DNA of 64,000 nt from a virus, in IMG/VR virus record IMGVR_UViG_3300035126_000631, positions 10,044 through 74,043 of that record. The stretch is one strand, 5' to 3'. Of this stretch, positions 201 to 62,427 are shown piece by piece (within the stretch, counting starts at the first letter, position 1; the number at the start of each line of letters is the position of its first letter). Made by a program: the position numbers and the translations under genes. The notes below the pieces were generated by a model. The model was given only the letters and a program-made list of their open reading frames with translations, searched no databases and was not told the origin of the DNA.

Positions 201-1889
201 ATGCCATACACCGCGAATAAGAAGATCGCAGGGCTAGACCCAGCAACGACGCCCTTGGCTGCGGCCAACGAGGTTCCGCTGAACCAAGCTGGGACGACAG
301 TGCGGGCTTCCCTGACCGCGATCGAGGCCAAGGTGTTTGATGCCAAGACGGCCCTGACTCCAGTGGCAGGGGAGACGGCAGTGGCCGTTGTCCGCCAGAC
401 GGACGGGTCGCTGCGTCAAGTGGCGCTGAACGACATCGTCCCGCCGCTGAATATTACCGACGCCAAAGTTGCGGCCGGAGCAGCCATCGTCGACACCAAG
501 CTCGCCACCATTGCAACGGCTAACAAGGTCGCCAACTCTGCGACTACGGCCACCAGTGCGAATACCGCCAATGCCATTGTGGCCCGAGATGCCAGCGGTA
601 ACTTCGCGGCTGGCACGATCACGGCAACTCTTTCCGGGAGCGTCGTCGGTAACGTCACCGGCAACGTGTCGGGAACTTCGGGATCCACCACCGGAAACGC
701 AGCCACCGCGACCACCCTTCAGACGGCACGGACGATTGCGATCAGCGGCGATGTCACCGGAACGGCGACTTCCTTCAATGGTTCGGCCAACATCGCCATT
801 GCTGCGGCGATTACGGCTGACACCATCGTCAATGCCGATGTGAACAGCGCGGCGGCGATTGCGGGAACGAAGATCACTCCGGCCTTCGGGTCGCAAAATA
901 TCAGCACGACGGGGACGTTGGCGGCGGGCGCGACGACCGTTACTGGAACGTGTGCGGCCACCGCTTTCAGCGGACCGTTGACGGGCAATGCCTCAACGGC
1001 CACGACACTAGCTACCGCAAGAAATCTTTCGCTGACTGGCGATGTCACCGCGACACTCTCAAGTTTCAACGGGTCGGCCAACGTCTCGGCGGCGGCAACC
1101 TTGGCTAATAGCGGTGTCGCTGCCGGAACCTACAACGACAACGCGGCCCAAGTGCGTCCGTTCACTGTTGACGCCAAGGGTCGAGTTACAGCAGTCGGAA
1201 CCGCCGTTCCCATTGCCGTCGACTATTCCGCCGTCACCGGGATGCCTTACAAAGACGCGGCGCGGCTGGCGACCACGGCCAACCTGACCGCGACTTATGC
1301 CAACGGCACTTCCGGTGTCGGAGCGACCCTGACCAACAACGGAACCATTGGCGCACTGTCTATCGACGGCGTGGCCGTTGCGACGAATGACCGCATTCTG
1401 GTCAAAGATCAGACCAGTGCCGCACACAACGGAATCTACAGCGTGACCAATACCGGAACTGTATCGGCTGCATGGGTGCTGACCCGTGTCACCGATGCCG
1501 ATACCAATGGCGAACTCGGCTCGGCGGTGGTCACCGTGACCTCCGGAACGGCCAATGGCGGTCGCGTCTACATGACTTTCTTCAAGGCGACGGACACAGT
1601 CGGAACCACCGTGATGCCTTGGTATCTCGTCCTGACCGGAGGCCCGAGCATCATCACCACCTCGATGTTGAACGATGGTGCCGTGACCGAAGCCAAGATC
1701 GATCCAAATGCCAAAATCCGTGGCGCTACCGGAGGCGGCACAGATCGTGTATTTTATGAGAACGACCAAACGGTCGATACGAATTACACAATAAGCACTA
1801 ACAAAAACGCCATGTCAGCCGGCCCGATTACGGTCGCCAACGGAATCACAGTCACCGTGCCCAATGGCTCAACCTGGACTGTCGTCTAA
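201..1889 (+). CDS. tail fibre protein
   Basis: 562 aa, Ala/Thr/Gly-rich with fibre-type repeats (GNAATATTLQTARTI / GNASTATTLATARNL) and a DRILVKDQT..NGIY segment typical of phage fibres. Confidence 0.8.
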   Translation: MPYTANKKIAGLDPATTPLAAANEVPLNQAGTTVRASLTAIEAKVFDAKTALTPVAGETAVAVVRQTDGSLRQVALNDIVPPLNITDAKVAAGAAIVDTKLATIATANKVANSATTATSANTANAIVARDASGNFAAGTITATLSGSVVGNVTGNVSGTSGSTTGNAATATTLQTARTIAISGDVTGTATSFNGSANIAIAAAITADTIVNADVNSAAAIAGTKITPAFGSQNISTTGTLAAGATTVTGTCAATAFSGPLTGNASTATTLATARNLSLTGDVTATLSSFNGSANVSAAATLANSGVAAGTYNDNAAQVRPFTVDAKGRVTAVGTAVPIAVDYSAVTGMPYKDAARLATTANLTATYANGTSGVGATLTNNGTIGALSIDGVAVATNDRILVKDQTSAAHNGIYSVTNTGTVSAAWVLTRVTDADTNGELGSAVVTVTSGTANGGRVYMTFFKATDTVGTTVMPWYLVLTGGPSIITTSMLNDGAVTEAKIDPNAKIRGATGGGTDRVFYENDQTVDTNYTISTNKNAMSAGPITVANGITVTVPNGSTWTVV

Positions 1890-1894
1890 GAATT

Positions 1895-2470
1895 ATGCCG
1901 ATCACCATCAACGGAACAGGAACAGTCGCCGGAATCACCGCAGGGGGATTGCCGGATGGGTGTGTGACTACAAGTGAGATCGCCGATGGTGCTGTTGTTA
2001 ATTCTAAGGTTGCCGATGGTGCCGTTGTTCAGGTTGTCTCGTCTACAGTGGCGACCGTATTGAGTATCAGCGCACCTATTCCTTCTGACGACACCATTCC
2101 GCAAAGCACAGAAGGCTGGGAATTGCTGACGGCAACGATCACGCCGAATAGCAGCACCAACAAAATACTTGTTCAGTTCAGCGGGTTCTGCGCATCGCCA
2201 AACACTGGCTTTGCAGCAAGCCACGTTTTGTTCCGTGGATCTACCGCAATCAACGTAATGGCCACAACTCACTCAGTAGCCAATGCCTTTACGCCGGTCT
2301 TCATTCAGCACCTAGATTCTCCGGCCAGCGGTTCAGCGATAACTTATTCTGTCCGTGTTGGCCCAAGTGTTGGAACCGTAAATTTTGCATACAACAGCAA
2401 CGGCGGAACACGCCGCTACGGCGGACAAGCATCTGCTGTGCTGACGCTGACCGAAATCAAAGACAGCTAA
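1895..2470 (+). CDS. tail fibre-associated protein
   Basis: 191 aa, beta-rich (TATITPNSSTNKILV), directly follows the fibre gene. Confidence 0.6.
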   Translation: MPITINGTGTVAGITAGGLPDGCVTTSEIADGAVVNSKVADGAVVQVVSSTVATVLSISAPIPSDDTIPQSTEGWELLTATITPNSSTNKILVQFSGFCASPNTGFAASHVLFRGSTAINVMATTHSVANAFTPVFIQHLDSPASGSAITYSVRVGPSVGTVNFAYNSNGGTRRYGGQASAVLTLTEIKDS

Positions 2471-2479
2471 CCATCTACT

Positions 2480-3010
2480 ATGGCCATCTCATTAGAAGCA
2501 GATCCAACACTCGCCCAAGGCTACATCAAGGTCAACGGGACGACCGCGGCGACCTTGGACGCGACGGGTATTACCACCGGAGGCGTCCCTGCTGGTGCGG
2601 TGATGGCATTCGCCATGAACAGCGCACCGACAGGATGGCTGGCGGCAGATGGCACCGCAGTTTCTCGTTCCACCTATGCAAGGCTCTTTGCTGCTGTCGG
2701 AACGACCCACGGAGTTGGCAACGGTAGCACGACTTTCAATGTGCCCGACCTGCGCGGCTACTTCGTGCGAGGCAGCGGAACCAACGGCGACGGCACGGCG
2801 GCGGGGACGTTTGGTGCAAAGCAGGCCGACGAATTGAAAAGCCATGCACATGATATCAATAATTTTTCAAGCACGGGCAACTTTGGAACTACAGGAACGC
2901 AATTTGGCCCAGTCCGATATGGGCCTACGGCAACAGGCGCGGCACTGGCCACCGGCGGCACCGAAACCCGCCCGAAGAACATCGCCATGCTGTATTGCAT
3001 CAAATTCTAA
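2480..3010 (+). CDS. phage tail collar domain protein
   Basis: VPAGAVMAFAMNSAPTGWLAADG..SRSTYARLF..FNVPDLRGYFVRG and C-terminal ETRPKNIAMLYCIK are collar-domain hallmarks. Confidence 0.9.
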   Translation: MAISLEADPTLAQGYIKVNGTTAATLDATGITTGGVPAGAVMAFAMNSAPTGWLAADGTAVSRSTYARLFAAVGTTHGVGNGSTTFNVPDLRGYFVRGSGTNGDGTAAGTFGAKQADELKSHAHDINNFSSTGNFGTTGTQFGPVRYGPTATGAALATGGTETRPKNIAMLYCIKF

Positions 3011-3012
3011 CC

Positions 3013-3459
3013 ATGCCAACCTCCATCACATCCTCCGGCATCACGTTCGACGACGCCACGACGCAGACGACTTCGGCCACTAAGGCACTTGGCATTGGAA
3101 CCGCGCAGCTTGCTAACGATGCAGTCACCGCTGCGAAGCTGGCCCCTAAAGTTACTTTTCCAAACTATGCGGCTGGAGTCGCGAGAGCATACAACACCGT
3201 CTATCAAGCGGCAGACGATGGATATTTGTGCGTTATTGTGTCGGGTAATTTTATCAACGGTATACAGATCTCCGTGGGCACGACAAGCAACCCTGATACG
3301 TGGGTCTGGCATTCGGGAGACGACATCAACAACAACACCAAACGCGCAGGTTCAGGAATGATTCCTATACCAAAAGACATTTATTACGAGGTTACTCCAA
3401 TTTCGGGGGTAGCCGCTTTTGAGAACATTACAATCACTTGGTATCCGGTCATTACCTAA
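3013..3459 (+). CDS. tail-associated protein
   Basis: Start reassigned to ATG 3013 (MPTSITSSG), 2 nt after the previous stop. Confidence 0.6.
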   Translation: MPTSITSSGITFDDATTQTTSATKALGIGTAQLANDAVTAAKLAPKVTFPNYAAGVARAYNTVYQAADDGYLCVIVSGNFINGIQISVGTTSNPDTWVWHSGDDINNNTKRAGSGMIPIPKDIYYEVTPISGVAAFENITITWYPVIT

Positions 3460-3464
3460 CAATT

Positions 3465-3887
3465 ATGGCACTAATCCCAGGAACACTCCCCACCGGAACC
3501 AAGTATCCCAACGACCCGCAGTCGTTGCTCGATACCTTTGCGTCCTACCTCACGGCACCTGAAGCCAAGAAGAATCGTGCCATTGTTACTCTTCCCGCGC
3601 CGCCCGCAGCGGGTGGCACGCTGAGTGCAGGGTCGAGCGGGATTGATGAGACTGTGGTGCTCAACAACACGACGACCTACGCGACTTTCACATTCACCTT
3701 CCCGAGCACGAACAATAGTGTGGTCGGACAGATTCTCCGGTTTTTCACACGCAGCATTGTCACGACCCTGACCGTCACGCTGAACGGCAATACCGTGCTG
3801 GGTGCGGCTTTGCCGGCTGGAACGACGGCTGGTCAATCCTTTGCGTGGCAAAAGATCGACGGGACGAATTGGATCCGACTGCAATAA
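3465..3887 (+). CDS. virion structural protein (hypothetical)
   Basis: ATG 3465 (MALIPGTLP), beta-rich, within the structural operon. Confidence 0.55.
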   Translation: MALIPGTLPTGTKYPNDPQSLLDTFASYLTAPEAKKNRAIVTLPAPPAAGGTLSAGSSGIDETVVLNNTTTYATFTFTFPSTNNSVVGQILRFFTRSIVTTLTVTLNGNTVLGAALPAGTTAGQSFAWQKIDGTNWIRLQ

Positions 3888-6800
3888 ATGGCGACTTACC
3901 TCGAAGCACGTAATCTGCTGGCACCCTACGTCGATAATGGCGTGGCGGTGACCGATACGACGCGCATCGACCAACGGATCAACGAGGCCCAGCGCCGTTT
4001 GATCGATCACTACAATTTCCTCTCCCGCCGCGAGGAGTTGGAGAAGTCGCCGCTCGTCTGGCAATCGGGTGGCACGACCGGCGTGCCGACCACGGGCGAC
4101 CTCATCCTCGACAACCTCGATGCGACCAAGACGATGATCTTGTCGCTCTGGCGCGAGGAGAACAACCAGTTGGAACTGGCCACCGCGCTGGAGACCAAGG
4201 CCAATTCCTACATCGAGCGCAACTTGATGAATGAAGTCGAGCGGGCGCGTCGGACGACCTTTCAATCACTGGCCACCTCAAACGGGCAGAACACCTTCGG
4301 CGGTATGACCGGACGGATCGGTCTGGAGACGCTCGTCCAATATCGGCTCCCAGAAAGTCGGCTCAAGAGTTACATCAACCAGGCTTACCAGCAGGCGGTC
4401 GATCACTACAATTTTGTCAGCCGCCGCGAAGACAAGGCCAAGACCAGCCTGACCTTTGCCGCGCTGACTTCGGATGCCGCGCAATTCGACTCCCTGCTTC
4501 CAGTCGAAGTAGTCCGGCTTCTTGCGCTTTCCATCATTGCCGCAGACAACGGGGCGGATGGTGCGGGGCTCAAGACACAAGCCTTGGAATTGATCGACCG
4601 CAATGTGACGGCCGACGTGGAGCGGACTCGGCGCGGACAGTCCGGTGAGGAAGGTCGTCTGCACAATGAGCTTCCGGACGGGGTAAAAATCCCGACAGCG
4701 CGGATGACGCAGTATCTCTCTCAAGCAGCTTCGGATGCTTCGCTGCACTACGACTTCTTGGCCCGGCGCGAGGACTACTCGACAGGGATCAAACCAAATC
4801 CATTCACCTTCGAAGTTCGCAAGAAACTAGTCGAATCCTACATTGCCACGGCCAATGCCGCCGCCGAGGTCGCCGCTTCGCTCAAGCAGGAAGCCTTTGC
4901 CCTGATCGAGCGTGACTTGATGGATGATGTCGAAACGGTGCGTCGTGCCGCAGGCGGCACGGAAGGTCAGCTTCACAATGAATTGCCGGAAGGGGTAAAG
5001 ATCCCGACGGCACGTCTGACCACGTATCTCGCTCAGGCCCAGACCGAAGCCTCGGCCCATTACTCTTTCCTTTCCCGCCGTGAGGACTATGCGGGCGGCA
5101 CGACACCGAGTCCTTTCCCCTACGAAGTCCGCAAAAAGTTGGTTGAGTCTTACTTGGCCACGACCAGCGCGGCGGTCGACGCGGCATCGGCTTTGAAACA
5201 AGAAGCCTTGGCCTTGGTCGAGCGCAACCTGATGCAGGAAATCGAAGCGGCCCGCCGAGTGGTTGGCGGCGAGGCGGGACGGCTGCATAACGAATTGCCG
5301 GAGGGCGTGAAGATTCCAACCTCGCGGATGAACGAGTATCTGACTCAGTCGGCCACGGATGCCGGAGCGCATTGGGATTTCTTGGCCCGACGTGAGGACT
5401 ATTCCAGCGGCACCAAGCCGAACCCTTTCCCTTTTGAGATCCGTGAGAAATTAGTCGAGTCATACATCGCGACGGCGACGGCGGCTCCGGATGTGGCGGC
5501 ATCCCTCAAGCAGGAGGCGTTTGCCGTCATCGAGCGCGACCTCATGGCCCAAGTCGAAGCGGCTCGCCGTGCGGAAGCAGGGGAAGAGGGTAAGCTGCAC
5601 AACGAATTGCCGGAGGGTGTGAAAATCTCCACAGCGCGGATGACAACTTACTTGGCCCAAGCGGCGACTGAAGCCGGAGCGCACTGGGATTTCTTGGCCC
5701 GCCGGGAAGATTACTCCAGTGGGACCAAGCCGAATCCTTTCTCCTACGAAGTCCGCAAGTCCTTGGTCGAAAGCTATGTCGCCGGGGCAACGGGTGCAGT
5801 GGAAGTGGCCACAGCGAAAAAGCAGGAAGCCTTGGCCGTCATCGAGCGCGACCTCATGGCGCAAGTCGAAGCCGCTCGCCGAGCCGCCGCAGGGGAAGAG
5901 GGTCGTCTGCACAACGAACTGACCAATGGCGTGGCCATCTCGACCGCCCGCCTGACGCAGCACTTGGCCCAAGCCGCGCTCGACGCCTCGGCCCATTACG
6001 ACTTTCTTGCCCGCCGCGAAGATTACTTCGGCGGCACCAAGCCGAATCCTTTCCCGTTTGAGGTCCGCAAGAAGCTGGTCGAATCCTATGTCGCGGCGAC
6101 CAATGCCGCTCCCGACGTGGCGGCGGCACTCAAGACCGAGGCTCAAGCGGTGATCGAGCGCGACCTCATGTTTGAGATTGAAGCAACCCGTCGCGGCGAA
6201 GCAGGGGAAGAAGGCCGTCTGCACAACGAGCTTCCGGAAGGGGTGAAAGTTTCCACCTCCCGCCTGACAACCTATCTCGGCCAAGCCGCCACGGAGGCTG
6301 GCACTCACTGGGACTTCTTGGCCCGTCGTGAGGATTATTCCAGTGGAACCAAACCCAATCCCTTTACCTATGAAGTGCGGAAAAAATACGTGGAGTCCTA
6401 TCTCGCGACCTCAACTGGTGCGATCGAAGCAGCGTCGGCCCTCAAAGCCGAAGCGCAAGCGTTGATCGAGCGCGACCTGATGACCCAGGTCGAGGCGGCG
6501 CGTCGAGCGGCAGCGGGTGATGAAGGCAATTTGCACAACGAACTGCCCGACGGCGTCACCATCCCGACGGGGCGTCTGACAACCTACCTTGGCCAAGCCT
6601 CGACGGAAATCGGAACGCACCAAGCCTTTGTCCAGCGCCGTGAGGAATACAACGGCACCGTCCCCGCGCCGACTTACGAACAGAAGAAATTGCTCGTCGA
6701 GGCATACCTCGCCACTTCGAAGGGGCAGTCGGACGTGGCCGCAGCCTTGAAGCAGCAAGCGGTCGCCTTGGTCGAGCGTGATGTGATGACCGAGATCGAA

Positions 6801-7478
6801 GGCACGCGCCGGGCAACTCGTGAAGCGTTGCTTGCTTCAGCCAATGACACCTTCGGCTACCACTGGGGCCGGATCGGTCTGGAACTTCCCGAGGCTTACA
6901 AGCTCTCGGACTCGGCGATCAAACGCATGGTCAATGCGGCCGAAGAGCAGTTGATGCTGGCCGGTAAGTGGGTCGGCACAGTGGCCGAGTATACCCTTTC
7001 GGTGAACGCCACGGGCGAGTTCTTCCTACCGGCCGAGGTGGAGACGATTCTTTTCATGTCTTTCGACGGAGATCCCAAGCCGGTCCACGATCGACTCAAC
7101 GAGTGGATCAAGGGCGGCACGGGCTACCGGGAGGCCGATGACAAGTGGCGGGAAGGGGCGGTCGATCGCGGTGAGTCGATTGATCCGGCCGACAACGTCC
7201 TCAAGCGCAAATACTGGATTACCCTACCGACGACGGTTCCGGTCGTTCGTATCCTAGCCAAACGCCGCTTCGTGCCGCATACGAGCGACTCGGAGAAAAT
7301 GTATCTCCGCAACTACCAAGCGGTCTACGAGGCGACCAAGGGGATCCTCCTCGGGGGCGAGCAAATCACCCCGCATATCGACAAGGCCAAGGAGATGCTT
7401 TCCGGCCAGATCGCCCAACAGAACTTCACAGGGAACCGCGGAGCCGCCCACACCCGTCGCGTTCTCATGTTTCGGTGA
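3888..7478 (+). CDS. putative head-tail adaptor / tail tubular protein A-like protein with internal 104-aa tandem repeats
   Basis: N-term RIDQRINEAQRRL and C-term MVNAAEEQL..GKWVGT..LPAEVETI resemble podoviral adaptor proteins. Position before the GNAT-like and internal virion genes fits. Family assignment is an inference. Confidence 0.55.
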   Translation: MATYLEARNLLAPYVDNGVAVTDTTRIDQRINEAQRRLIDHYNFLSRREELEKSPLVWQSGGTTGVPTTGDLILDNLDATKTMILSLWREENNQLELATALETKANSYIERNLMNEVERARRTTFQSLATSNGQNTFGGMTGRIGLETLVQYRLPESRLKSYINQAYQQAVDHYNFVSRREDKAKTSLTFAALTSDAAQFDSLLPVEVVRLLALSIIAADNGADGAGLKTQALELIDRNVTADVERTRRGQSGEEGRLHNELPDGVKIPTARMTQYLSQAASDASLHYDFLARREDYSTGIKPNPFTFEVRKKLVESYIATANAAAEVAASLKQEAFALIERDLMDDVETVRRAAGGTEGQLHNELPEGVKIPTARLTTYLAQAQTEASAHYSFLSRREDYAGGTTPSPFPYEVRKKLVESYLATTSAAVDAASALKQEALALVERNLMQEIEAARRVVGGEAGRLHNELPEGVKIPTSRMNEYLTQSATDAGAHWDFLARREDYSSGTKPNPFPFEIREKLVESYIATATAAPDVAASLKQEAFAVIERDLMAQVEAARRAEAGEEGKLHNELPEGVKISTARMTTYLAQAATEAGAHWDFLARREDYSSGTKPNPFSYEVRKSLVESYVAGATGAVEVATAKKQEALAVIERDLMAQVEAARRAAAGEEGRLHNELTNGVAISTARLTQHLAQAALDASAHYDFLARREDYFGGTKPNPFPFEVRKKLVESYVAATNAAPDVAAALKTEAQAVIERDLMFEIEATRRGEAGEEGRLHNELPEGVKVSTSRLTTYLGQAATEAGTHWDFLARREDYSSGTKPNPFTYEVRKKYVESYLATSTGAIEAASALKAEAQALIERDLMTQVEAARRAAAGDEGNLHNELPDGVTIPTGRLTTYLGQASTEIGTHQAFVQRREEYNGTVPAPTYEQKKLLVEAYLATSKGQSDVAAALKQQAVALVERDVMTEIEGTRRATREALLASANDTFGYHWGRIGLELPEAYKLSDSAIKRMVNAAEEQLMLAGKWVGTVAEYTLSVNATGEFFLPAEVETILFMSFDGDPKPVHDRLNEWIKGGTGYREADDKWREGAVDRGESIDPADNVLKRKYWITLPTTVPVVRILAKRRFVPHTSDSEKMYLRNYQAVYEATKGILLGGEQITPHIDKAKEMLSGQIAQQNFTGNRGAAHTRRVLMFR
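4659..6830 (+). repeat. 7 in-frame tandem repeats with a 312-bp (104-aa) period
   Basis: LHNEL codons begin at 4659, 4971, 5283, 5595, 5907, 6219 and 6531, each exactly 312 bp apart. The end coordinate is approximate. Confidence 0.95.
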
Positions 7479-7488
7479 TATAATAACT

Positions 7489-7836
7489 GTGCAACCCGCA
7501 TGGCAAATCGCAAAACAATGGCACGAGAAATACATCCCAGAGCAGCCGTTTTCGGAAGCTGTCGTGAACTGTCTGAAAGAGGGAGTTCTCTACTCTTCTC
7601 CGGAGATTTTTGTGTGCGGACGGGAAGTGCTTTGGGACGGGGAGACGGTCTACATGAGTAATCACCCTAACGCATGGTTTGTCCACATGGCCGCTTCGAG
7701 TGGTCACACCAATCCGGTCAGAGCCTTCATGCAGGCCGCGACAAAACCCCGTCGCTGGGTGTTGTGGCACCGTCGCAACGAAGACCGTCTCCGTATTTTT
7801 AAGTGGGAAACTCTAGCTAGGAAGGTGGGTCTCTAA
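7489..7836 (+). CDS. hypothetical protein, possibly GNAT-fold virion assembly protein
   Basis: 115 aa, GTG start, located between tail and internal virion genes where podoviruses often carry a GNAT-like gene. Confidence 0.45.
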   Translation: MQPAWQIAKQWHEKYIPEQPFSEAVVNCLKEGVLYSSPEIFVCGREVLWDGETVYMSNHPNAWFVHMAASSGHTNPVRAFMQAATKPRRWVLWHRRNEDRLRIFKWETLARKVGL

Positions 7837-10199
7837 TGGGTAATAAAAGCAGCGCACCGGCATACCCCAAAGCCGAGATCAACCGTCTAGCGGATCAATA
7901 CGTCCGCGACCAGCAAGCCGACGTAGGCCCATACCTCAAAGCCATCTCAAACTTTGGCGATCGGCTCACCAAAAAAGTCGACGACCTTGTCGAGAAAGGT
8001 GCGACCAAACTCGATGCTGAAGAGACGGCTTTACTCGGTCGCCTCGATGACTTCAACCAACGACTTGTCGAGTTCCAAGCGACCGAGAACACGGAACTCC
8101 TCAAGGATCTCGGGGATATCACCGGAGACTTCCGCTCGGCGATGTCCCTCTTGGATGAGACCGACCGCAAGGAATTCTCGACGGCGCTGAAAAACTTTGA
8201 AGAACGTGGAGCCGAGCTTGTCAAAACCTACGACGCACGGGCGACCGCGGAATCTGAACGCGGCTTCACTGACAGTCAGAGCGTTCTTGATAAATACGAG
8301 GAGGAACGCAAAGCCGACATCGCCAAGACAAAAGGTGAAGAGCTTTCGACGATTACCAAATATGGGACTGACTCAAAATCACTAGCTGACGAATTTCAGA
8401 GGAGTGCTGATGGGTTCCTAAAAAGCTCTTTAGATGAGGCCGACCAAAGAGCGAAAGACAGTAAAGACATCACGGGTCGCTTCGACTCTGAGACAAAGGC
8501 GCTGACCGACGAGCTTCGTAAAGACTCACTCAGCAACATCGAGCGCAATACCACCGAAAGGAAATCACTAGCGGATACTTTCCTGTCGATGTCGGGGACT
8601 TCTACTTCCGACTACAATCGCCGCTTGGAGGAAGCCCTCAGTCTTTCACCGGAACGCCTAGCGGAGTTTACCCAAGCGGCCGACTTCATCTCCAAAGCCG
8701 CCCTCCAGACCCGGATGGATATGCTGGCTACGGCAGATCCCCGCGCCTTGGAGCTTTCAGCCATTGCCGACGAAAATGCTGCGGCGCTGATGAGTGGCCG
8801 GATCTCGGCCGATGTGCAGGCAAATCTCGCTCGTTCGTCTGCGATGCGTGCTTTGCAGGGCGGCTTCGGCGCGGGCAGTGAAATGGGTCGTGGCTTGTCG
8901 GCACGCGACCTGGGACTGACCTCCTTGGACCTGATGAAGCAAGGCTCGGAGCTAAACGACGCGCAGCGTCGATTGAACTACGCGACAAGAGTTGAAGGAG
9001 TAGCTAGAGACGCGGGGGCCAATGCGGGTCAATTTCTCGCCAACGACCAGACGCTTCGGCGCAACCAAGCCGCCGATCTTCTCAGTGCGGAGACCGATCG
9101 GAATCGGACTTTCTTTGATGTGAGCGAGCGTGGGCTGGCCAATGAATTGGCGGAAAGAAATCGCGCTGCGTTAAACTACGCCGACCAAAGCCGGATGTCT
9201 TTGACCGACCGGCAAAGGGCTGAACTCGATCAACTCAACAAAGTTGGCGACACGCGACAGGCCGCATTCTTACAAGGACGGCAGGACGCACGCGGGGTCT
9301 TTGATTATCTGGGCCGCTCCCAAGATCTGATGCTTGGATCCAACCTGGCCGCGATCCGCTATGGTGCAGAGCGCACCGACAATACTCTCAACACCGCGCT
9401 GGCAGGGAATCTCGCCAACATCAACACGCGGACAACGCAGAATCTCGGCATCGCCCGCGATGTTTTTGCGGGTGAGAGTGATATCAACCGATTGGGCTTT
9501 GCCGCCGGTCAAGACAACTTGGCCCAGCGCACCCGCCGACAAGCCGACAATCTGACGAACATCTGGGACCGCGACTTCCAAGCGCGGCTTGGTGTTTACA
9601 ATACCAATGTCGGAACTGGGCGTTCGCTCTACGGCACAAATGTCCAAGCGGCCGGGAATATTTACAACACTAGCGCCGGGTTTATCCAAAATATGACTGG
9701 CAACCAGATCAATACGGCTGGAAATGTCTACCAAGGTGACACCCGTGCTCGGGAGAACGCTTTCAATACAATGGCGCAAGTCCGCGGATCGGCGATGGGC
9801 ACCAAGATAAATGCGGCACAAAAGGGCTGGGAAGTCGATCAAGCCAACTGGGCATCGGGGAAAAATAGCGACAACGCGATGTGGGGGAGCCTTGTAAACA
9901 TGGGGGCCACGATTGCCGGGGGAGTCATCGGGACGGCGGCTGGCGGCAACACTATGGCTGGTTTGCAAATCGGCAGCACTCTTGGTGGCATCGCCAGCAG
10001 TGGGATTAGCGGAGGCTCTGGATCGGGCGGAGGCAGTGGATCCAGTGGTGGCGGCAATCCGTTCAGCACGATGGGGATGTTTACCAGCGCGTTGGGGGGA
10101 ATGGGCAAGACCACCGGCTTCGACAATCAGTGGGGGATGTATGGTCGCAACACAAAAGGATTCGGTAACTTCGACTACGGATCAGGAACAGGAGCTTAA
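7836..10199 (+). CDS. internal virion (DNA ejection) protein
   Basis: 787 aa, helical/coiled-coil with a Gly-rich hydrophobic C-terminus (MGATIAGGVIGTAAGG). Start overlaps the upstream stop. Confidence 0.6.
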   Translation: MGNKSSAPAYPKAEINRLADQYVRDQQADVGPYLKAISNFGDRLTKKVDDLVEKGATKLDAEETALLGRLDDFNQRLVEFQATENTELLKDLGDITGDFRSAMSLLDETDRKEFSTALKNFEERGAELVKTYDARATAESERGFTDSQSVLDKYEEERKADIAKTKGEELSTITKYGTDSKSLADEFQRSADGFLKSSLDEADQRAKDSKDITGRFDSETKALTDELRKDSLSNIERNTTERKSLADTFLSMSGTSTSDYNRRLEEALSLSPERLAEFTQAADFISKAALQTRMDMLATADPRALELSAIADENAAALMSGRISADVQANLARSSAMRALQGGFGAGSEMGRGLSARDLGLTSLDLMKQGSELNDAQRRLNYATRVEGVARDAGANAGQFLANDQTLRRNQAADLLSAETDRNRTFFDVSERGLANELAERNRAALNYADQSRMSLTDRQRAELDQLNKVGDTRQAAFLQGRQDARGVFDYLGRSQDLMLGSNLAAIRYGAERTDNTLNTALAGNLANINTRTTQNLGIARDVFAGESDINRLGFAAGQDNLAQRTRRQADNLTNIWDRDFQARLGVYNTNVGTGRSLYGTNVQAAGNIYNTSAGFIQNMTGNQINTAGNVYQGDTRARENAFNTMAQVRGSAMGTKINAAQKGWEVDQANWASGKNSDNAMWGSLVNMGATIAGGVIGTAAGGNTMAGLQIGSTLGGIASSGISGGSGSGGGSGSSGGGNPFSTMGMFTSALGGMGKTTGFDNQWGMYGRNTKGFGNFDYGSGTGA

Positions 10200-53810: not shown

Positions 53811-55589
53811 ATGTCTTTGATTTTAGTGAAATCCGGCATTCAACCGCCGGCCGGCTCGATCCAACGCTACGGTGCTTGGTGGCCGCAGCACACCGCTGAC
53901 TGGGCGATTGAGTTGTTTTGTTTCCGTGGGATGGACACCGCGGGGATGGATGTTCTTTCGAGGGAACAGCACTTCAAAAACGCAGCCCAAATGTTCTTCC
54001 ACAAGAAATCGGAGAACTTCATCTGGCACCCCTGGGCGGACGATATGCTTTACGAGTGCTGCCATCAGAAGTTTGTCGGTTTCGCTGGTTGCGGTTCGAG
54101 CGGAAAGTCGGAATTCATGGCGGTCTGGGCTCTACTCAACTGGCTTTCGGCCCCGTTCCACACGCTCTCGCTCGTCACGAGCACGAGTATTCGGGATGCG
54201 AAGAAGCGGGTCTGGGGAGCTATTCAGAGGTATTGGCCGTGCATTAAATCCGTAGCCCCCGGCAAGCTGGCCGATACTCCGACTCCGGCCATCTACGCGA
54301 TCCGCAACGGCGAGCGGATGGAACAGGCGGGTGTGTATTTGATTCCGGCCGAAGCCAAGAAGACCTCGGAGGTCACCGGAAAAATGAGAGGCATGAAAGC
54401 CCACCGGGTCATCGTCGCGGCGGACGAGCTTTCGGAACTTGGACATGCTTTCCTCGATACCGCCCTTTCGAACCTCTCCAACAACCCCGAGCTTCATATC
54501 TGCGCGGCGGCGAACCCTGTCAGCTATTACGACCCTTTCGGCCGCTTCGTCGAGCCGACGAACGGTTGGGGGAGCATCACGGTGAACGACGAGCGGTGGG
54601 AGACGAAGATCGGCGGGGTCTGTCTGCACCTCGACGCGCTCAAGAATCCGAACTACTTGGCCGGTGAGAACAAATGGCCGATCCAAAAATGGGAGAAGAT
54701 CGACGAGGCTCGTGAACGGCTCGGTGAGGACAACCCGATCTTCTGGCGCGATTACCGCGGGTTCTGGCCTCCGCAGGCGGTCAGTAAGGCGATCTACTCC
54801 GAGGCCGAGATCGTCCGGTTTCAGGCCGATCAAAAGCCCGTTTGGAAGGGCCGAGTCGAGCGAGTAGCCGGACTCGACCCTTCCTTTGTGAGCGGCGGAG
54901 ATAGATGTGTGCTTTATCTCGGGAGCTTCGGCCAGAACAAAGATGGGGCCGATCAGGTTTCTTTCGATGAGTTCCACTTCCTCGACGAGGAGGCGAGCAA
55001 TCCCGAACCGCGCACTTTTCAGATCGCGAAGAAAATTAAAGACATCGTGACTGAGGCGGGCGTTCCTTGGAGGAATATCGGGGTAGATGTGACGGGCGGC
55101 GGGGTGCCGTTTTGCGATGCGCTGGCGACGGTGTGTGGCTCGAATGAATTTCAGCGCGTTCACTTCGGCGGAGCCCCGTCGAGCCGATCACTCTCGGCTT
55201 ACGATTCCACCCCTGCCGACGAAAAGTATGTCAACAAAGTCACCGAGCTTTGGTTCGGGGCGAAAGAGTTCCTGTCGAGCGGGCAGCTTCGCGGGATCGG
55301 TCCGGATCTGGCCCGAGAGATGACCAGCCGGAACTACGATACCAGAAAGTCTGGTTCGATGAAGGTCGTGGTTGAGAGCAAGACTGACATGAAGGCCAGG
55401 ATCGGTCGCTCGCCGGATGTGGCCGATGCCGCCTTTGTCATGCTCGATGTTGTCCGCGAAAGGTTTGGGATGCGTCCGCCGCAGGAGGGTGGCAGTGGGA
55501 AAAGGGGAGGGCAGACGAAATGGAAGCACACAATGACGACCGGCAAGTTTGCTCCGAGGCGCACGGCCAATTTGCTCAGTTCTTTCTGA
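53811..55589 (+). CDS. terL: terminase large subunit
   Basis: Walker A GCGSSGKS, Walker B VIVAADE, AANP, nuclease GLDPS..GD and SPDVADA. Confidence 0.92.
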   Translation: MSLILVKSGIQPPAGSIQRYGAWWPQHTADWAIELFCFRGMDTAGMDVLSREQHFKNAAQMFFHKKSENFIWHPWADDMLYECCHQKFVGFAGCGSSGKSEFMAVWALLNWLSAPFHTLSLVTSTSIRDAKKRVWGAIQRYWPCIKSVAPGKLADTPTPAIYAIRNGERMEQAGVYLIPAEAKKTSEVTGKMRGMKAHRVIVAADELSELGHAFLDTALSNLSNNPELHICAAANPVSYYDPFGRFVEPTNGWGSITVNDERWETKIGGVCLHLDALKNPNYLAGENKWPIQKWEKIDEARERLGEDNPIFWRDYRGFWPPQAVSKAIYSEAEIVRFQADQKPVWKGRVERVAGLDPSFVSGGDRCVLYLGSFGQNKDGADQVSFDEFHFLDEEASNPEPRTFQIAKKIKDIVTEAGVPWRNIGVDVTGGGVPFCDALATVCGSNEFQRVHFGGAPSSRSLSAYDSTPADEKYVNKVTELWFGAKEFLSSGQLRGIGPDLAREMTSRNYDTRKSGSMKVVVESKTDMKARIGRSPDVADAAFVMLDVVRERFGMRPPQEGGSGKRGGQTKWKHTMTTGKFAPRRTANLLSSF

Positions 55590-55593
55590 GCGG

Positions 55594-55607
55594 TATAATA
55601 ACTCCAC
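55594..55607 (+). promoter_or_regulatory. TATAATAACTCCAC motif directly before an ATG (representative of about 17 copies)
   Basis: TATAAT + AACTCCAC + ATG; the same motif-ATG geometry occurs at 51603-51614 on the minus strand. Confidence 0.6.
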
Positions 55608-55799
55608 ATGTCGTATCGGGTCACAGTCGAGGAATTACGCAAAGGCGCACCGCCGCTGCGGATGATTTCGTTGACGGGTGTTGATTGGCTTCAGGCGATC
55701 GACGCGGTGACGGAGGTGCTTTCCCGTGAGGACGGCTACTTCAACCAAGACGAGCAGGAAAACACGGCCACTGAGCCGGATGATGAATTACTTCCATAG
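55608..55799 (+). CDS. small hypothetical protein
   Basis: 63 aa following the motif. Confidence 0.55.
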   Translation: MSYRVTVEELRKGAPPLRMISLTGVDWLQAIDAVTEVLSREDGYFNQDEQENTATEPDDELLP

Positions 55800-56757
55800 C
55801 GGGGATCTAGGTGATGTCATCTACGCTCTGCCCGCGATCCGGGCTTTGGGTAAGGGCAACTTGTATCTGAACTCCCGTCCGTGGACCGCGAAGATGACGC
55901 CCGAGCGGGCCAACGTGCTTCGTCCACTCCTTGAATCCCAAGACTACATCGGTAAGGTGATTCACGGGGATGCGCCGAAGAACGAGCACTGCGTCAATTT
56001 CTCCACGTTCCGTAATGGCGGGCTGATCTACGGCGTCAGCCTCATGGAGCTTCAGAGCGATTGGGTTAATGCCAATGCGGAGTCGGAACCTTGGTTGAAG
56101 GTCGCGCCGTCGGCCAAATCCCGAGGCCGCATCGTTTGTCATCGCAGCCCGCGATACCACAATCCTTACTTCCGCTGGGATGAGATCGGCGAGAAGTTCG
56201 GCACACAACTTCTCTTTGTCGGTCTACCGCACGAAGTCGAGGAACTGCGACGGGTCAGCAAGGTTCATGCGGAGTATGCGATCACCAATGACTACCTCGA
56301 ACTCGCCCGGCTGATCGCGGGCGCGGATCTTTTCATCGGCAACCAGTCTTCGCCGATGAGCTTGGCGATCGGTCTCGGAGTTCCGTTTATCCAAGAGACA
56401 TGCCTCTGGACGCCCGACTGCCTCTACCCGCGCAAGAATGGTTTCTACTCCTACGATGGAGGAATCCCGAGCCTGGATATCCCTGAGTTTATCCCACCAC
56501 CGGATGTCGACCGCAACGTCCTACCTCCGGGCGGCTGGCAAGTGATTTCACGGAGAACGGGCGAGCGGGTCACCTTCAAGTCACATCGTCTGGCGACTAA
56601 GCACCTTAAAGGTTACGACCGCTACCTCAACGACGAATCCGCCGCCCAAGAGGTCGACCGGCAGAATGCGGTCCGCATCCCGCACCTCGTCCGGCGCGAC
56701 AGCGCATTCCAAATCTTCGGTAAAGTTAAGCCGCTGGTCGACGCGGTCTCTAAATGA
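55780..56757 (+). CDS. GT9 / heptosyltransferase-like glycosyltransferase with C-terminal PPGGW module
   Basis: GDLGDVIYALPAI and LELARLIAGADLFIGNQSSPMSLAIGLGVP. Confidence 0.8.
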   Translation: MMNYFHSGDLGDVIYALPAIRALGKGNLYLNSRPWTAKMTPERANVLRPLLESQDYIGKVIHGDAPKNEHCVNFSTFRNGGLIYGVSLMELQSDWVNANAESEPWLKVAPSAKSRGRIVCHRSPRYHNPYFRWDEIGEKFGTQLLFVGLPHEVEELRRVSKVHAEYAITNDYLELARLIAGADLFIGNQSSPMSLAIGLGVPFIQETCLWTPDCLYPRKNGFYSYDGGIPSLDIPEFIPPPDVDRNVLPPGGWQVISRRTGERVTFKSHRLATKHLKGYDRYLNDESAAQEVDRQNAVRIPHLVRRDSAFQIFGKVKPLVDAVSK

Positions 56758-57182
56758 ACGACGCCTGTAAAACCGGAGACATCTCCGAGTCGATCTTCGC
56801 CACCCAAGCTCTGCGACGGGGCTGGTGGGTTTACACGTCCAATGGTCATGCGCGGCCGGCGGATGCGATCGTGGTCCGACCGCCAATGCGTCCGGTCTCT
56901 ATTCAAATCAAGACTGCCTCGATCTATGCCGATCGCGACAATACTTACGGCGTGATGGTCTGCCGCGGGAGAGGTCCGGTCAAAGTGTCCTATCTTAAAG
57001 GCGACTTCGATATCTTGGCCGCTTGGTTACCGGACGTGGAGAAGTTCGTCTTCTGGCGATTTGACGAGATCGCCGAGCGGAAGAAAATTAACTATTCGCC
57101 GCGGCTGCATCGTCAGCCGGACAACTGGGATTTGTTGGAGACCGCATTTGCAGATATAATAACCCCACAACCATGCTGCTAG
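56754..57182 (+). CDS. free-standing PD-(D/E)xK endonuclease
   Basis: GDISE..ADAIV..IQIKT..DFDILA. Confidence 0.75.
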   Translation: MNDACKTGDISESIFATQALRRGWWVYTSNGHARPADAIVVRPPMRPVSIQIKTASIYADRDNTYGVMVCRGRGPVKVSYLKGDFDILAAWLPDVEKFVFWRFDEIAERKKINYSPRLHRQPDNWDLLETAFADIITPQPCC

Positions 57183-57928
57183 TCCTTCCTGTGTCCAAGG
57201 CCGACCTGAAGCTCGCCACCGCTCTGGCTGGCCATCTTGAGCTATTGGGCGGCTTGTCGCGCCACAAGCTCCTCCTCGTCGGCACGATCCAGACCAAGGA
57301 CGAAGCCGCCGCCCTGAAAGAGAGATTGGCCCCGCTCTTCGCCTCGGCCGACCTCTTTGTTCCGGATTCCGAATGCGAACTCGGCTGGCCCCAGAGTGCC
57401 AACCACCTCTGGGCTCGCACGGTTCGCCACCTCCAGCACAGTGGAAACAAGGACACTTGGTATTGGTTCGAGGCCGATAATACGCCGATCCGTGAGGATT
57501 GGCTCGATGCCATTGAGACCGAATACAATCAAGCCCAGAAGCCCTTTCTGGGAGCCGTCCAGCCGACCCGAATGCTCGACCGCAAGTCGGGCGAATTCGT
57601 CAAAGTCGATGGCGAGCATGTTATCGGGACGTGCGTTTATCCGGCTGATTTCCATAACCGCTCACTCCTTTGGAGCTATGTCCGGATCGACGACGGCCCA
57701 AATGTCGAACCCTTCGACGTTTACCTCCGCCACGAGATGCGTCCGAACACGGCAGTTTCCCAACTCATTCACAACAACTGGCGGACGAAGAACTACGAGA
57801 TCGGACCGAAGGGCGAGATCTACTGCGATCCGATCGACGACCTCTCGGTCTACGGTCCTGTGCCCGCCGATGCCGCCGTGGTTCACGGATGTAAAGACGG
57901 TTCGCTCATAGAAGCCCTGCAAAAATGA
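57173..57928 (+). CDS. putative GT-A-fold glycosyltransferase
   Basis: GWPQSAN, WYWFEAD (DxD-like), GTCVYP, PFDVY and VVHGCKD; inference. Confidence 0.45.
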   Translation: MLLVLPVSKADLKLATALAGHLELLGGLSRHKLLLVGTIQTKDEAAALKERLAPLFASADLFVPDSECELGWPQSANHLWARTVRHLQHSGNKDTWYWFEADNTPIREDWLDAIETEYNQAQKPFLGAVQPTRMLDRKSGEFVKVDGEHVIGTCVYPADFHNRSLLWSYVRIDDGPNVEPFDVYLRHEMRPNTAVSQLIHNNWRTKNYEIGPKGEIYCDPIDDLSVYGPVPADAAVVHGCKDGSLIEALQK

Positions 57929-60246: not shown

Positions 60247-60455
60247 GGGACTATAAAAAAGAATACGAGAGCTACCATGCTTCGCCGATCCAGAAGAAGC
60301 GCCGCGCTCAACGCAATGCGGCCCGCCGCAAGATGACTAAAGCGGGCTACGTGAGCAAAGGCGACGGCAAGGACGTGCATCATAAAAACGGCATGAGCAA
60401 CCACTCCAGCAATCTGGCCGTGTTGCCGAGGTCCGTGAACCGGAGTATTAAGTAA
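60243..60455 (+). CDS. small HNH-like protein
   Basis: KGDGKDVHHKNG..N..SNL..L.RSVNRS. Confidence 0.75.
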   Translation: MRDYKKEYESYHASPIQKKRRAQRNAARRKMTKAGYVSKGDGKDVHHKNGMSNHSSNLAVLPRSVNRSIK

Positions 60456-60459
60456 TAAC

Positions 60460-60693
60460 ATGCCCGCTTATTATCCAGAAGGAAACACACCCCTGCGCGA
60501 GGACTATACCGAGCGGTCGTTGCAGAAGATCAACGACATCATGCACTCGAATACTCCGACCTGGGACGACATCGCGCTGACCTATGCCGGAAGCAACCTG
60601 ACGAAGGTCGAGTATAAGCTCAACGGCTCGGTCGTCGAGACCCGCAACTTTTCCTACAGCGGCACCAATCTCACCCGCGTTCTAAAGAGTTAA
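60460..60693 (+). CDS. small structural protein
   Basis: Internal repeat YAGSNLTKV / YSGTNLTRV. Confidence 0.6.
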   Translation: MPAYYPEGNTPLREDYTERSLQKINDIMHSNTPTWDDIALTYAGSNLTKVEYKLNGSVVETRNFSYSGTNLTRVLKS

Positions 60694-60694
60694 G

Positions 60695-62266: not shown

Positions 62267-62427
62267 AATAGACTATGGCCAACCTTTCGACATATTACCC
62301 CGCTCCGATCACCGCCGCCGATCTCGGCTTGGGTGCGGGCAGCAACGCGACCTTCGGCTCGCTCACCGCCAACAACGGCACGCTCACGGCGTCCGCGCCT
62401 GTGCTGGATTTGGCGCAGACTTGGAAC
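61382..62427 (+). repeat. identical 60-bp direct repeat shared by two fibre genes
   Basis: 61382-61441 equals 62368-62427 (ANNGTLTASAPVLDLAQTWN). Confidence 0.9.

Follow-up and report, generated by a model that had tools for sequence, protein, structure and literature searches.

A phage protein that joins a predicted head-to-tail adaptor domain to an array of adaptor-like helical modules

We found that one gene of an uncultured and probably short-tailed phage with a genome of ~74 kb encodes a single chain in which a head-to-tail adaptor follows a long array of repeated modules. Structure modeling showed that the last 212 aa of this 1196-aa protein (P0001, the poly-adaptor protein) have the fold of a complete podovirus head-to-tail adaptor of the tail tubular protein A type. 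The 980 aa before the adaptor domain form nine helical modules, and the models give the repeat unit the helix-bundle fold of adaptors. The gene, its parts and its neighbors are listed below by position in the window, that is, the whole 64,000-nucleotide stretch of DNA that was analyzed. The ATG of the gene abuts the TAA of the preceding open reading frame (TAAATG).

3438..3887, + strand: upstream neighbor, 149 aa, conserved, no assigned function
3888..7478, + strand: whole gene, poly-adaptor protein P0001, 1196 aa; frame open for 1196 codons
3888..4292, + strand: module N1, aa 1-135; hhalign versus the unit 98.4%, E 7e-15
4293..4646, + strand: module N2, aa 136-253, a diverged helical module; hhalign versus the unit 99.6%, E 5e-24
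4647..6518, + strand: regular 104-aa units U0-U5, starting at 4647, 4959, 5271, 5583, 5895 and 6207
6519..6827, + strand: unit U6, aa 878-980, 103 aa, 1 aa shorter than the other units
6840..6959, + strand: adaptor domain, N-terminal bundle helices, aa 985-1024 (AF2 model 1, helices 112-147)
6981..7265, + strand: beta-sandwich, fiber-dock-like, aa 1032-1126 (AF2 model 1, strands 155-249)
7314..7409, + strand: adaptor domain, C-terminal bundle helices, aa 1143-1174 (AF2 model 1, helices 266-297)
7410..7475, + strand: low-confidence C-terminal tail, aa 1175-1196 (pLDDT <50, model residues 298-319)
7836..10199, + strand: downstream neighbor P0195, 787 aa

Known podovirus adaptors form a 12-subunit ring on the portal. 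We took a helix bundle split by a beta-sandwich fiber dock and followed by a disordered C-terminal tail as the mark of such an adaptor, and the model of aa 878-1196 (AF2 model 1, pLDDT 78.8) satisfied it: helices, strands 155-249, helices 266-297 and a disordered tail came in that order. The beta-sandwich is inserted within the bundle and aligned with the SU10, GP4 and T7 adaptors. Foldseek matched the C-terminal domain to the tail adaptors of SU10, GP4, crAss001, KHP30 and N4 with a probability of 1.0. VIA gave full-length coverage against SU10, GP4, Pa223, A4, N4 and T7 gp11 (Z 11.5 to 5.8). The best alignment, to SU10 gp11 (Z 11.5), spanned residues 3-221 of 227; T7 gp11 scored 5.8-6.1, and KP32 TTPA was also among the matches. 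The adaptor fold that the initial annotation had suggested looking for in the last ~200 aa was thus recovered by two structure searches. The podovirus adaptors T7 gp11, SU10 gp11, GP4, N4 and KP32 share the three-part layout and align over their full length (Z 11.5 to 4.9). However, they are single-domain proteins of 185-240 aa, whereas in the 1196-aa protein described here the adaptor is only the last 212 aa. The tail at aa 1175-1196 sits where known adaptors have the segment that embraces the portal (PMC6702177, PMC9509320), and a similar role for it is inferred from that analogy.

Sequence searches did not identify the protein. No known adaptor family was matched in Pfam or PHROGs, PDB sequence searches with the whole protein and with the A1 and A2 profiles gave chance matches only, and tblastn of the protein against 50,697 phage records found no match.

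We found that the seven regular units are exactly periodic. The motif LHNEL occurs at aa 258, 362, 466, 570, 674, 778 and 882 (nucleotides 4659, 4971, 5283, 5595, 5907, 6219 and 6531), and all intervals are 104 aa, or 312 bp. This bears out, for every spacing in the reading frame (3888-7478), the seven LHNEL-anchored units at an exact 312-bp period described in the initial annotation. Units were 62-81% identical to one another in protein and 64-74% in DNA, with no identical DNA run longer than 26 nt. Tandem Repeats Finder (TRF) detected the 312-bp period over 3.5 copies only (5276-6369, score 923, 71% matches), as the DNA of the copies has diverged. Between units, synonymous differences reached a proportion of 0.60-0.81 (saturated), and dN was ~0.22. 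Saturation at synonymous sites, together with a dN/dS of ~0.1, shows that the units are old. This agrees with the earlier description of old repeats that diverged synonymously yet kept a constant length. Each regular unit contains one short helix and three helices of ~25, 15 and 28-30 residues. Units are joined by a short non-helical linker (consensus A-G-E-E-G), without a continuous linking helix. The columns that are invariant across modules are often charged (R19, R40, R41, E42, R89, E96, R99 and R100).

The sequences on both sides of the regular units are related to them, to different extents. Module pairs within the chain gave hhalign probabilities of 98-99.6%, including 99.1% for N2 against N1. 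N1 is the most diverged helical module, with ~30 additional residues in the loop past its first long helix; it is presumably the portal-distal, N-terminal end of the chain. The start of the adaptor domain matched a module over its first 37-46 residues, at 91-93% with N2 (E 1e-6 to 3e-7) and more weakly with a regular unit (E 9e-4). There was no hhalign signal between the unit and the C-terminal helices of the adaptor domain, even with the beta-sandwich columns removed, so sequence homology between unit and adaptor domain is confined to the first ~40 residues. Beyond these residues, the case that the unit is an adaptor bundle is structural. The earlier proposal that both flanks echo the unit holds for N1 and N2 and, by sequence, for the C-terminal domain over ~40 residues only. 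With nine helical modules and the bundle inside the C-terminal domain, the ~10 homologous modules per chain that had been proposed are accounted for.

Our structural results support the inference of the initial annotation that the unit is the helical core of a head-to-tail adaptor. We modeled two units with AF2 (pLDDT 95.3, pTM 0.81) and compared the model with 48,161 PDB chains in an exhaustive VIA search that was independent of Foldseek. Among the 30 best entries, 27 were phage or gene transfer agent (GTA) adaptor or neck structures; Z was 9.8 for Pa223, 9.5 for VP1, 7.8 for Mu, 5.8 for YqbG and 5.5 for HK97 gp6. One unit aligned with adaptors over 90-96 residues at 2.5-3.7 Å rmsd, with their beta-sandwich skipped. 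The fold search of the repeat that had been suggested was successful only in part. The two-unit model had no Foldseek match in the PDB or BFVD, and the adaptors were recovered by the exhaustive VIA search alone. Furthermore, VIA Z values of 8-10 can be reached by chance with helical models. Our argument rests on the identity of the matched proteins and not on Z: we infer from the model that the unit is an adaptor core because the matched proteins were nearly all adaptors or neck proteins of phages, aligned via their helix bundles.

Two kinds of known protein are similar in size to one unit. The small all-helical adaptors of long-tailed phages, namely HK97 gp6, the Mu neck subunit, SaPI1, JBD30 and B. 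subtilis YqbG, are helical bundles of ~100-130 aa with the fold of one unit, and they aligned with it over 79-93 residues (Z 5.5-7.8; 7.8 for 5ydn_A, 90/109 residues; 5.5 for 3jvo_A; 5.8 for 1xn8). In contrast to the modules described here, they stand alone, one ring per virion, and their sequence models do not match the modules. Spectrin repeats are three-helix bundles of ~104-106 aa arranged in tandem in a rod, and pairs of them (1cun, 3f57) also resembled the two-unit model, weakly (Z 5.4, rmsd 8.5-9 Å). Spectrin has a continuous linking helix where the present protein has a non-helical linker, and the adaptor matches are better and span the whole unit. Pfam matches of the whole protein to DUF3615, DUF3199, LDB19 and PAX were rejected as sums of weak repeats that fail per module. 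DUF3199 reached 27.3 bits summed with no single stretch passing, and it matched in only one of nine modules (E 0.047). In this array the adaptor helix bundle acts as a self-standing building block that can be duplicated.

We found that the number of modules varies among relatives. The seven-unit array itself was present in five independent assemblies (L003, L004, L013, L014 and L045; 84-98% identity). The repeat counts in homologs, a check proposed in the initial annotation, were informative: 124 full-length relatives had 2 to 9 helical modules per protein (1 in forms of 355 aa), and the count changed at least 43 times on the tree of the flanks. DNA insertions and deletions were exactly 312 or 624 bp where checked, and anchor spacing was exactly 104 aa in 275 of 326 cases. 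The end modules N1, N2, U5 and U6 are specialized and constant in position, and it is the number of internal modules that varies. The N1 loop takes up insertions in relatives. All genomes with 2 to 9 modules were ~67-75 kb. In distant relatives the N-terminal end, too, is a full adaptor-like domain with a beta-sandwich, and 1-4 helical modules lie between the two adaptor-like domains; no such double-ended relative was found in the P0204 scan of viral contigs. Two stand-alone, single-module proteins of 131-132 aa (P0218 and P0221) were considered as split forms and rejected; P0218 is probably a fragment, because it shares 99% identity with the N-terminal end of 415-aa forms (contigs L041-44). 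No prophage copy turned up when prokaryotic genomes, one for each species, were scanned.

How might such a chain be used? We lean, if only slightly, toward the inference that twelve chains stack into rings and so form a one-polypeptide counterpart of the tail barrel of crAss001, although we have neither a model of the oligomer nor an image of the virion. The C-terminal domains would hold the twelve chains together on the portal. Each further module would pack with its counterpart in the eleven other chains and create a new 12-fold ring. The outcome would be ~10 stacked rings forming a barrel of ~40-45 nm, with N1 at the far end contacting the next tail component. Module count would set barrel length, and in-register recombination between units would change the count by one ring (~4.5 nm) per step. 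Barrel length may in turn match the thickness of host surface layers. A tube whose length follows repeat count, as the initial annotation had envisaged, is plausible but not shown.

Several observations fit a lattice of stacked rings. The exact 104-aa spacing, the fixed end modules and the frequent changes in module count by 312/624-bp insertions and deletions count in its favor. So, by analogy, do the invariant charged columns, as electrostatic contacts are what mainly keeps T7 gp11 rings together (PMC6702177). The second adaptor-like domain of the distant relatives and the lengthening of the downstream protein P0195 with module count also speak for the barrel. The C-terminus of adaptors embraces the portal (PMC6702177, PMC9509320), and therefore N-to-C fusion would stack modules naturally away from it. 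Against ring stacking, the helical modules lack the beta-sandwich found in every crAss001 ring, and the resemblance to spectrin pairs is equally compatible with free rods.

The crAss001 barrel is 23 nm long and consists of five stacked dodecameric rings of the adaptor fold (R1-R5), which are products of four separate paralogous genes (gp43, gp40, gp35 and gp34). Crassviruses differ in the number of ring genes, which was proposed to set barrel length, and the last ring touches the muzzle with its N-terminal residues (PMC10172136). Both systems use several paralogous copies of the adaptor fold, per virion or per chain, and in crAss001 the N-terminus points away from the portal, as we propose here. 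However, the crAss001 rings come from a fixed set of 3-4 separate genes, are 14.9-30.6% identical and each have a beta-sandwich. In the poly-adaptor protein up to ten modules are fused, nine of them without a beta-sandwich; they are 62-81% identical and their count is labile among close relatives. The crassvirus criterion of three conserved helices and a sandwich in each ring subunit is thus not satisfied, as the modules are all-helical and the sandwich is in the C-terminal domain only (plus the N-terminal domain of the distant relatives). We found no sequence relation to crassvirus ring proteins by PHROG matches, and structural matches to crAss001 chains reached only Z 5.1-7.7.

Tail length in long-tailed phages is set by the tape measure protein; in crAss001, the one long-barrelled podovirus that has been studied well, it follows from how many separate ring genes there are. 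As in the proposed barrel, the length of a tape measure is encoded by the gene, differs with the number of its internal repeats and may determine how long the tail is. In contrast to the proposed barrel, in which the wall carries the count, it is an extended ruler inside a tube made of many copies of a separate tube protein. That the barrel wall is one polypeptide species with its length written as module count, perhaps with P0195 filling the lumen, is a proposal we make tentatively and one that could well fail. Under it, the distant relatives that end in an adaptor domain on either side would be a two-collar form of this barrel design. If true, a fused, fast-varying adaptor array would be a third solution to tail length, legible from sequence. 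Because the relatives range naturally from 1 to ~10 modules while their ~70-kb genomes are otherwise similar, they could be used to test tail reach against host envelope thickness.

Our results might also indicate that the twelve chains project as separate spectrin-like rods of three-helix bundles, serving as neck whiskers, capsid struts or spacer arms, so that repeat number tunes the length of an arm and not of a tube. Helical bundles of ~104 aa arranged in tandem, each with its N-terminus at the end opposite to its C-terminus, would suit a rod, as would the pTM of the two-unit model and its weak spectrin matches. T7 gp11 is monomeric when off the portal (PMC6702177), so bundle modules need not self-associate, and the insertions in the N1 loop are what a distal binding tip might have. 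However, the strict unit length and the charged positions exceed the needs of a passive spacer, the fold is specifically the one of a ring-forming protein, no receptor-binding or enzymatic domain is present at the tip, and the far-end adaptor-like domain of the distant relatives resembles a second ring more than a fiber tip. We consider rods unlikely but a serious alternative. We have less regard for the possibility that the modules, whether stacked or not, are mainly serial attachment sites for sets of tail fibers or spikes, with the count following the number of fiber types and not tail length, which seems to us improbable. Several proteins that match tail fiber and tail collar families are encoded nearby, at 201-3010 and 60695-62266 of the window and in the genome's upstream 10 kb, upstream gene sets vary between loci, and R1 and R2 of crAss001 anchor fiber hubs (PMC10172136). 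But in known adaptors it is the beta-sandwich that receives the fibers, and the helical modules have none (PMC6702177, PMC9509320), and genomes remain ~67-75 kb whether there are 2 modules or 9.

The variation in module count also bears on a suggestion of the initial annotation that the modules of one chain close a single ring around the axis as a pseudo-oligomer. The ten bundles of the present protein are near twelve. But relatives with near-identical flanks have anywhere from 2 to 9 modules, numbers that could not all fit one ring symmetry, and the portal-binding tail and beta-sandwich are in the last module only. Because close relatives differ in this way, we regard a pseudo-oligomer as very improbable. 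Still harder to credit is a mis-assembled repeat or a non-functional, decaying expansion. The contig is metagenomic and repeats are prone to mis-assembly, but the units differ by 26-36% in DNA and share runs of at most 26 nt, 1196 codons are open with dN/dS of ~0.1, and the array recurs in five other assemblies, so it is not an artefact. Either an artefact or a lack of adaptor likeness would have refuted the original inference; the five assemblies and the adaptor and neck matches spoke against both.

No nozzle, portal or capsid gene was confirmed in the genome by family and PDB sequence searches, which counts against the stacked-ring barrel; PDB sequence searches with a 773-aa candidate portal and a candidate terminase were blank, and ESM Atlas was uninformative for the 787-aa and 559-aa neighbors and identified no nozzle. 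Most virion genes are still unassigned, since no relative of the lineage has been cultured or annotated. P0195 had no family match, and tblastn against the 50,697 phage records was blank. From its sequence it looks mostly helical and highly charged, with a Gly-rich, hydrophobic C-terminal region. It may be a lumen or ejection protein, although a role in the lumen is untested. The length of P0195 grew with module count (Spearman 0.71, N 31) by ~35 aa per module; 35 aa as a straight helix would span ~5 nm, close to the height of one ring. This correlation was not shown to be independent of phylogeny, as an independent-pairs test had too few supported contrasts. There were also counter-examples: L016 and L017 have 7 and 8 modules and P0195 counterparts of 734 and 735 aa, the counterparts in L028-30 are 506-507 aa long despite 8-9 modules, and that in L018, with 6 modules, is 801 aa long. 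On the other side of the gene, the upstream neighbor is 137-146 aa in the closest relatives.

The adaptor gene of the window (protein P0001) is a single open frame of 1196 codons at window 3888-7478 (+). We found seven LHNEL motifs, the first at residue 258 and the last at 882; neighboring copies are always exactly 104 residues (312 bp) apart, as the initial annotation had described. Parsing the protein with profile HMMs gave the following layout:

aa 1-135: N1, N-terminal module
aa 136-253: N2, second N-terminal module
aa 254-980: seven regular units (U0-U6), the last of 103 aa
aa 985-1196: CT, the C-terminal domain, 212 aa

The suggestion that the N-terminal flank echoes the unit held up. 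The hhalign probability against the unit was 98.4% for N1 and 99.6% for N2, and 99.1% for N1 against N2. Judged by these profile comparisons, both N-terminal modules derive from the regular unit and have diverged from it. Eleven columns are invariant across the nine-module alignment, including R19, H34, F37, R40, R41, E42, E96, R99 and R100.

The unit copies in the window gene are, on sequence evidence, old. Units are 62-81% identical in protein and 64-74% in DNA, synonymous differences between them are saturated (0.60-0.81), and dN is ~0.22 with dN/dS of ~0.1. The longest exact DNA run common to units is 26 nt, and because of this divergence TRF picks up just 3.5 copies of the array. An assembly artefact, which would have refuted the array, is excluded for practical purposes: the seven-unit gene recurs in five other assemblies, with 84-98% identity.

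We modeled U6 plus CT from an alignment of 23 relatives (pLDDT 78.8). The model of CT runs from N-terminal helices through a beta-sandwich to two C-terminal helices and a 22-residue low-confidence tail. A Foldseek search matched CT at probability 1.0 to the tail adaptors of SU10, GP4, crAss001, KHP30 and N4. VIA-align alignments of CT spanned the full length of known adaptor proteins (SU10 gp11, Z 11.5, residues 3-221 of 227; GP4, Z 10.5; N4, Z 7.8; T7 gp11, Z 5.8-6.1; KP32 tail tubular protein A, Z 4.9). CT has the same three-part organisation as the adaptors of T7 and SU10, in which a helix bundle and a fibre dock are joined by a portal-embracing segment at the C terminus (PMC6702177, PMC9509320).

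The regular unit had been proposed to copy the helical core of a head-tail adaptor, and structural comparison supports this. A model of two regular units (aa 462-669), built from 53 two-unit segments of the window and related loci, was very confident (pLDDT 95.3, pTM 0.81); each unit consists of one short helix and three further helices. In an exhaustive search of 48,161 PDB representatives with this model, 27 of the 30 top matches were phage adaptor or neck proteins. Podovirus adaptors match the unit through their N- and C-terminal helices, skipping the sandwich (Pa223 adaptor, Z 9.8; VP1, Z 9.5, 96 residues at 2.5 A). For the small all-helical adaptors of long-tailed phages, the alignment takes in almost the entire protein (Mu, 7.8; HK97 gp6, 5.5; YqbG, 5.8). 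Z values by themselves are not decisive for a helical model, and our argument rests on which proteins match. The first 37-46 residues of CT are also homologous to the module start (N2 vs CT probability 91-93%), an independent link between unit and adaptor domain; hhalign found no sequence signal between the module and CT's remaining helices. Since the unit model matches adaptor and neck bundles and CT folds as an adaptor, the chain holds ten adaptor-type bundles, in line with the roughly ten homologous helical modules first suggested. Of these, only the last still has a sandwich and a portal-binding tail.

Module number varies widely among relatives. A search of 5.8 billion proteins gave 119 relatives of near length, whose lengths step by 104 aa (676, 780, 884, 988, 1092, 1196); shorter complete forms reach 355 aa, one module plus CT. 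Anchor spacings in relatives were exactly 104 in 275 of 326 cases. On a tree of the non-repeat flanks (N1 + CT) of 124 full-length proteins, the number of helical modules ranges from 2 to 9 and at least 43 changes are needed. Pairs whose flanks are identical differ by a single unit; the positions of U5 and U6 are fixed, and internal units vary. At the DNA level, locus L017 differs from L013 by one 312-bp block, L016 from L017 by one such block and a single-codon indel, and L016 from L013 by 624 bp. The adaptor genes of L016 and L017 are ~99-100% identical in their 3' third, but identity falls to 62-69% in the array, which is therefore also exchanged by recombination and is a mosaic. With the module profile, just 44 clusters were recovered from 1.84 billion representatives, and the family is thus rare. 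In 10 of these 44 clusters there is a second adaptor-like domain, with sandwich, at the N terminus, and one to four helical modules separate it from the C-terminal one (P0200, P0204, P0205, P0210, P0212, P0214, P0222, P0225, P0226, P0228). By BLASTP against the window CT, the N-terminal domain of P0204 scored E 6e-7 and its C-terminal domain E 3e-21.

The window protein combines an adaptor with nine additional adaptor-core modules; it is under purifying selection, and the number of modules is highly variable. The adaptor/ring fold and multi-ring barrels are already known, and literature searches turned up no account of a fused multi-adaptor protein. What is new is the fusion of adaptor modules into one chain, the loss of the sandwich from the spacer modules, and a module count that changes rapidly, one unit at a time.

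Our inference is that twelve chains come together so that their modules build a stack of rings. The initial annotation had raised a stacked, elongated neck or tail tube with length set by repeat count; the variable count (2-9) is observed, and the stacking remains an inference. The closest precedent is the crAss001 tail barrel, 23 nm long, with five stacked dodecameric rings built from four paralogues that share the adaptor fold; crassviruses differ in their number of ring genes, and barrel length was tied to reach through a ~30 nm capsule (PMC10172136). Adaptor C-termini are directed at the portal (PMC6702177, PMC9509320), and in the last crAss001 ring the N-terminal residues contact the muzzle (PMC10172136); a module fused N-terminal to another would therefore sit one level farther from the portal. 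This polarity, derived by analogy, fits stacked rings. Consecutive modules would be joined by a short linker (consensus A-G-E-E-G), and if each ring added 4.6 nm, as in crAss001, ten rings would span ~45 nm. The strict unit length, conserved charged positions, specialised end modules and double-headed relatives agree with lattice packing, and do not prove it. The array might instead form free spectrin-like arms, the main alternative, which we consider less likely: the two-unit model weakly matches spectrin pairs too, and adaptors are monomeric off the portal (PMC6702177). It is also possible, though we give this little weight, that the modules act as a docking ladder to which several sets of fibres attach. 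Closure of one chain's modules into a single ring, the pseudo-oligomer also suggested at the outset, is unlikely because module count differs between close relatives.

A neighboring gene bears on the inferred stacked rings:

window 7836-10199 (+): 787-aa protein, with homologues at related loci L003-L061

By sequence appearance it is largely helical with a high content of charged residues, and its C-terminal region is Gly-rich and hydrophobic. Across loci the protein measures 413 to 801 aa, the differences falling in several separate blocks that are not tandem repeats. Its length climbs with module number (Spearman 0.71, N = 31 distinct loci); the ~35 aa gained per module would, as a straight helix, come close to the height of one ring. 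This trend points the same way as stacked rings. However, it ignores shared ancestry, a pair test was without power, and there are exceptions (L016/L017, L018, L028-30).

The window comes from a virus record of 74,043 bp that is rated complete, and covers its bases 10044-74043. Upstream of the adaptor gene are tail fibre and collar proteins; downstream come a 115-aa ORF, the 787-aa protein, two further proteins (161 and 559 aa) and a virion protein of 3361 aa. The opposite strand carries replication genes and an integrase. Most virion genes lack a family match. The two virion proteins tested had no matching record in the phage collection, and prokaryote reference genomes contained no adaptor relatives. 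Unconfirmed candidates for terminase (592 aa), portal (773 aa), capsid (391 aa) and nozzle (whole record G000, window 53811-63522, and L002) had no sequence match in Pfam, PHROGs or the PDB. The phage lineage is deeply divergent and its host unidentified. The motif TAATAACTGTGCAA lies at window 7478-7495, immediately 3' of the adaptor stop codon (TGATATAATAACTGTGCAAC) and ahead of the next ORF, and may be a gene-boundary signal.

Some relatives have other architectures. In one clade the adaptor gene is broken within a loop of the beta-sandwich by an in-frame TAA followed by ACC ATG (L042:5542-7263), identically in L041, L043 and L044; 415-aa first ORFs occur in L058-L061 too. The second ORF opens with ~90 extra, possibly Ig-like, residues and then provides the last strand, C-terminal helices and tail. 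Such a gene is either a split adaptor or read through at the stop codon. Four long relatives (P0112, P0117, P0118 and P0120; 897-1951 aa) carry extra sequence, including matches to the lamin-tail domain (PF00932). In P0112 and P0118 just the first half of the adaptor domain was detected, followed by ~740 more residues, which suggests that extra domains were grafted onto the adaptor. Another clade (L066-L076, ORF 4974-6698) has 574-aa forms whose first module carries a ~75-residue insertion in the loop after the first helix. This loop is already longer in N1 of the window protein than in the regular units.
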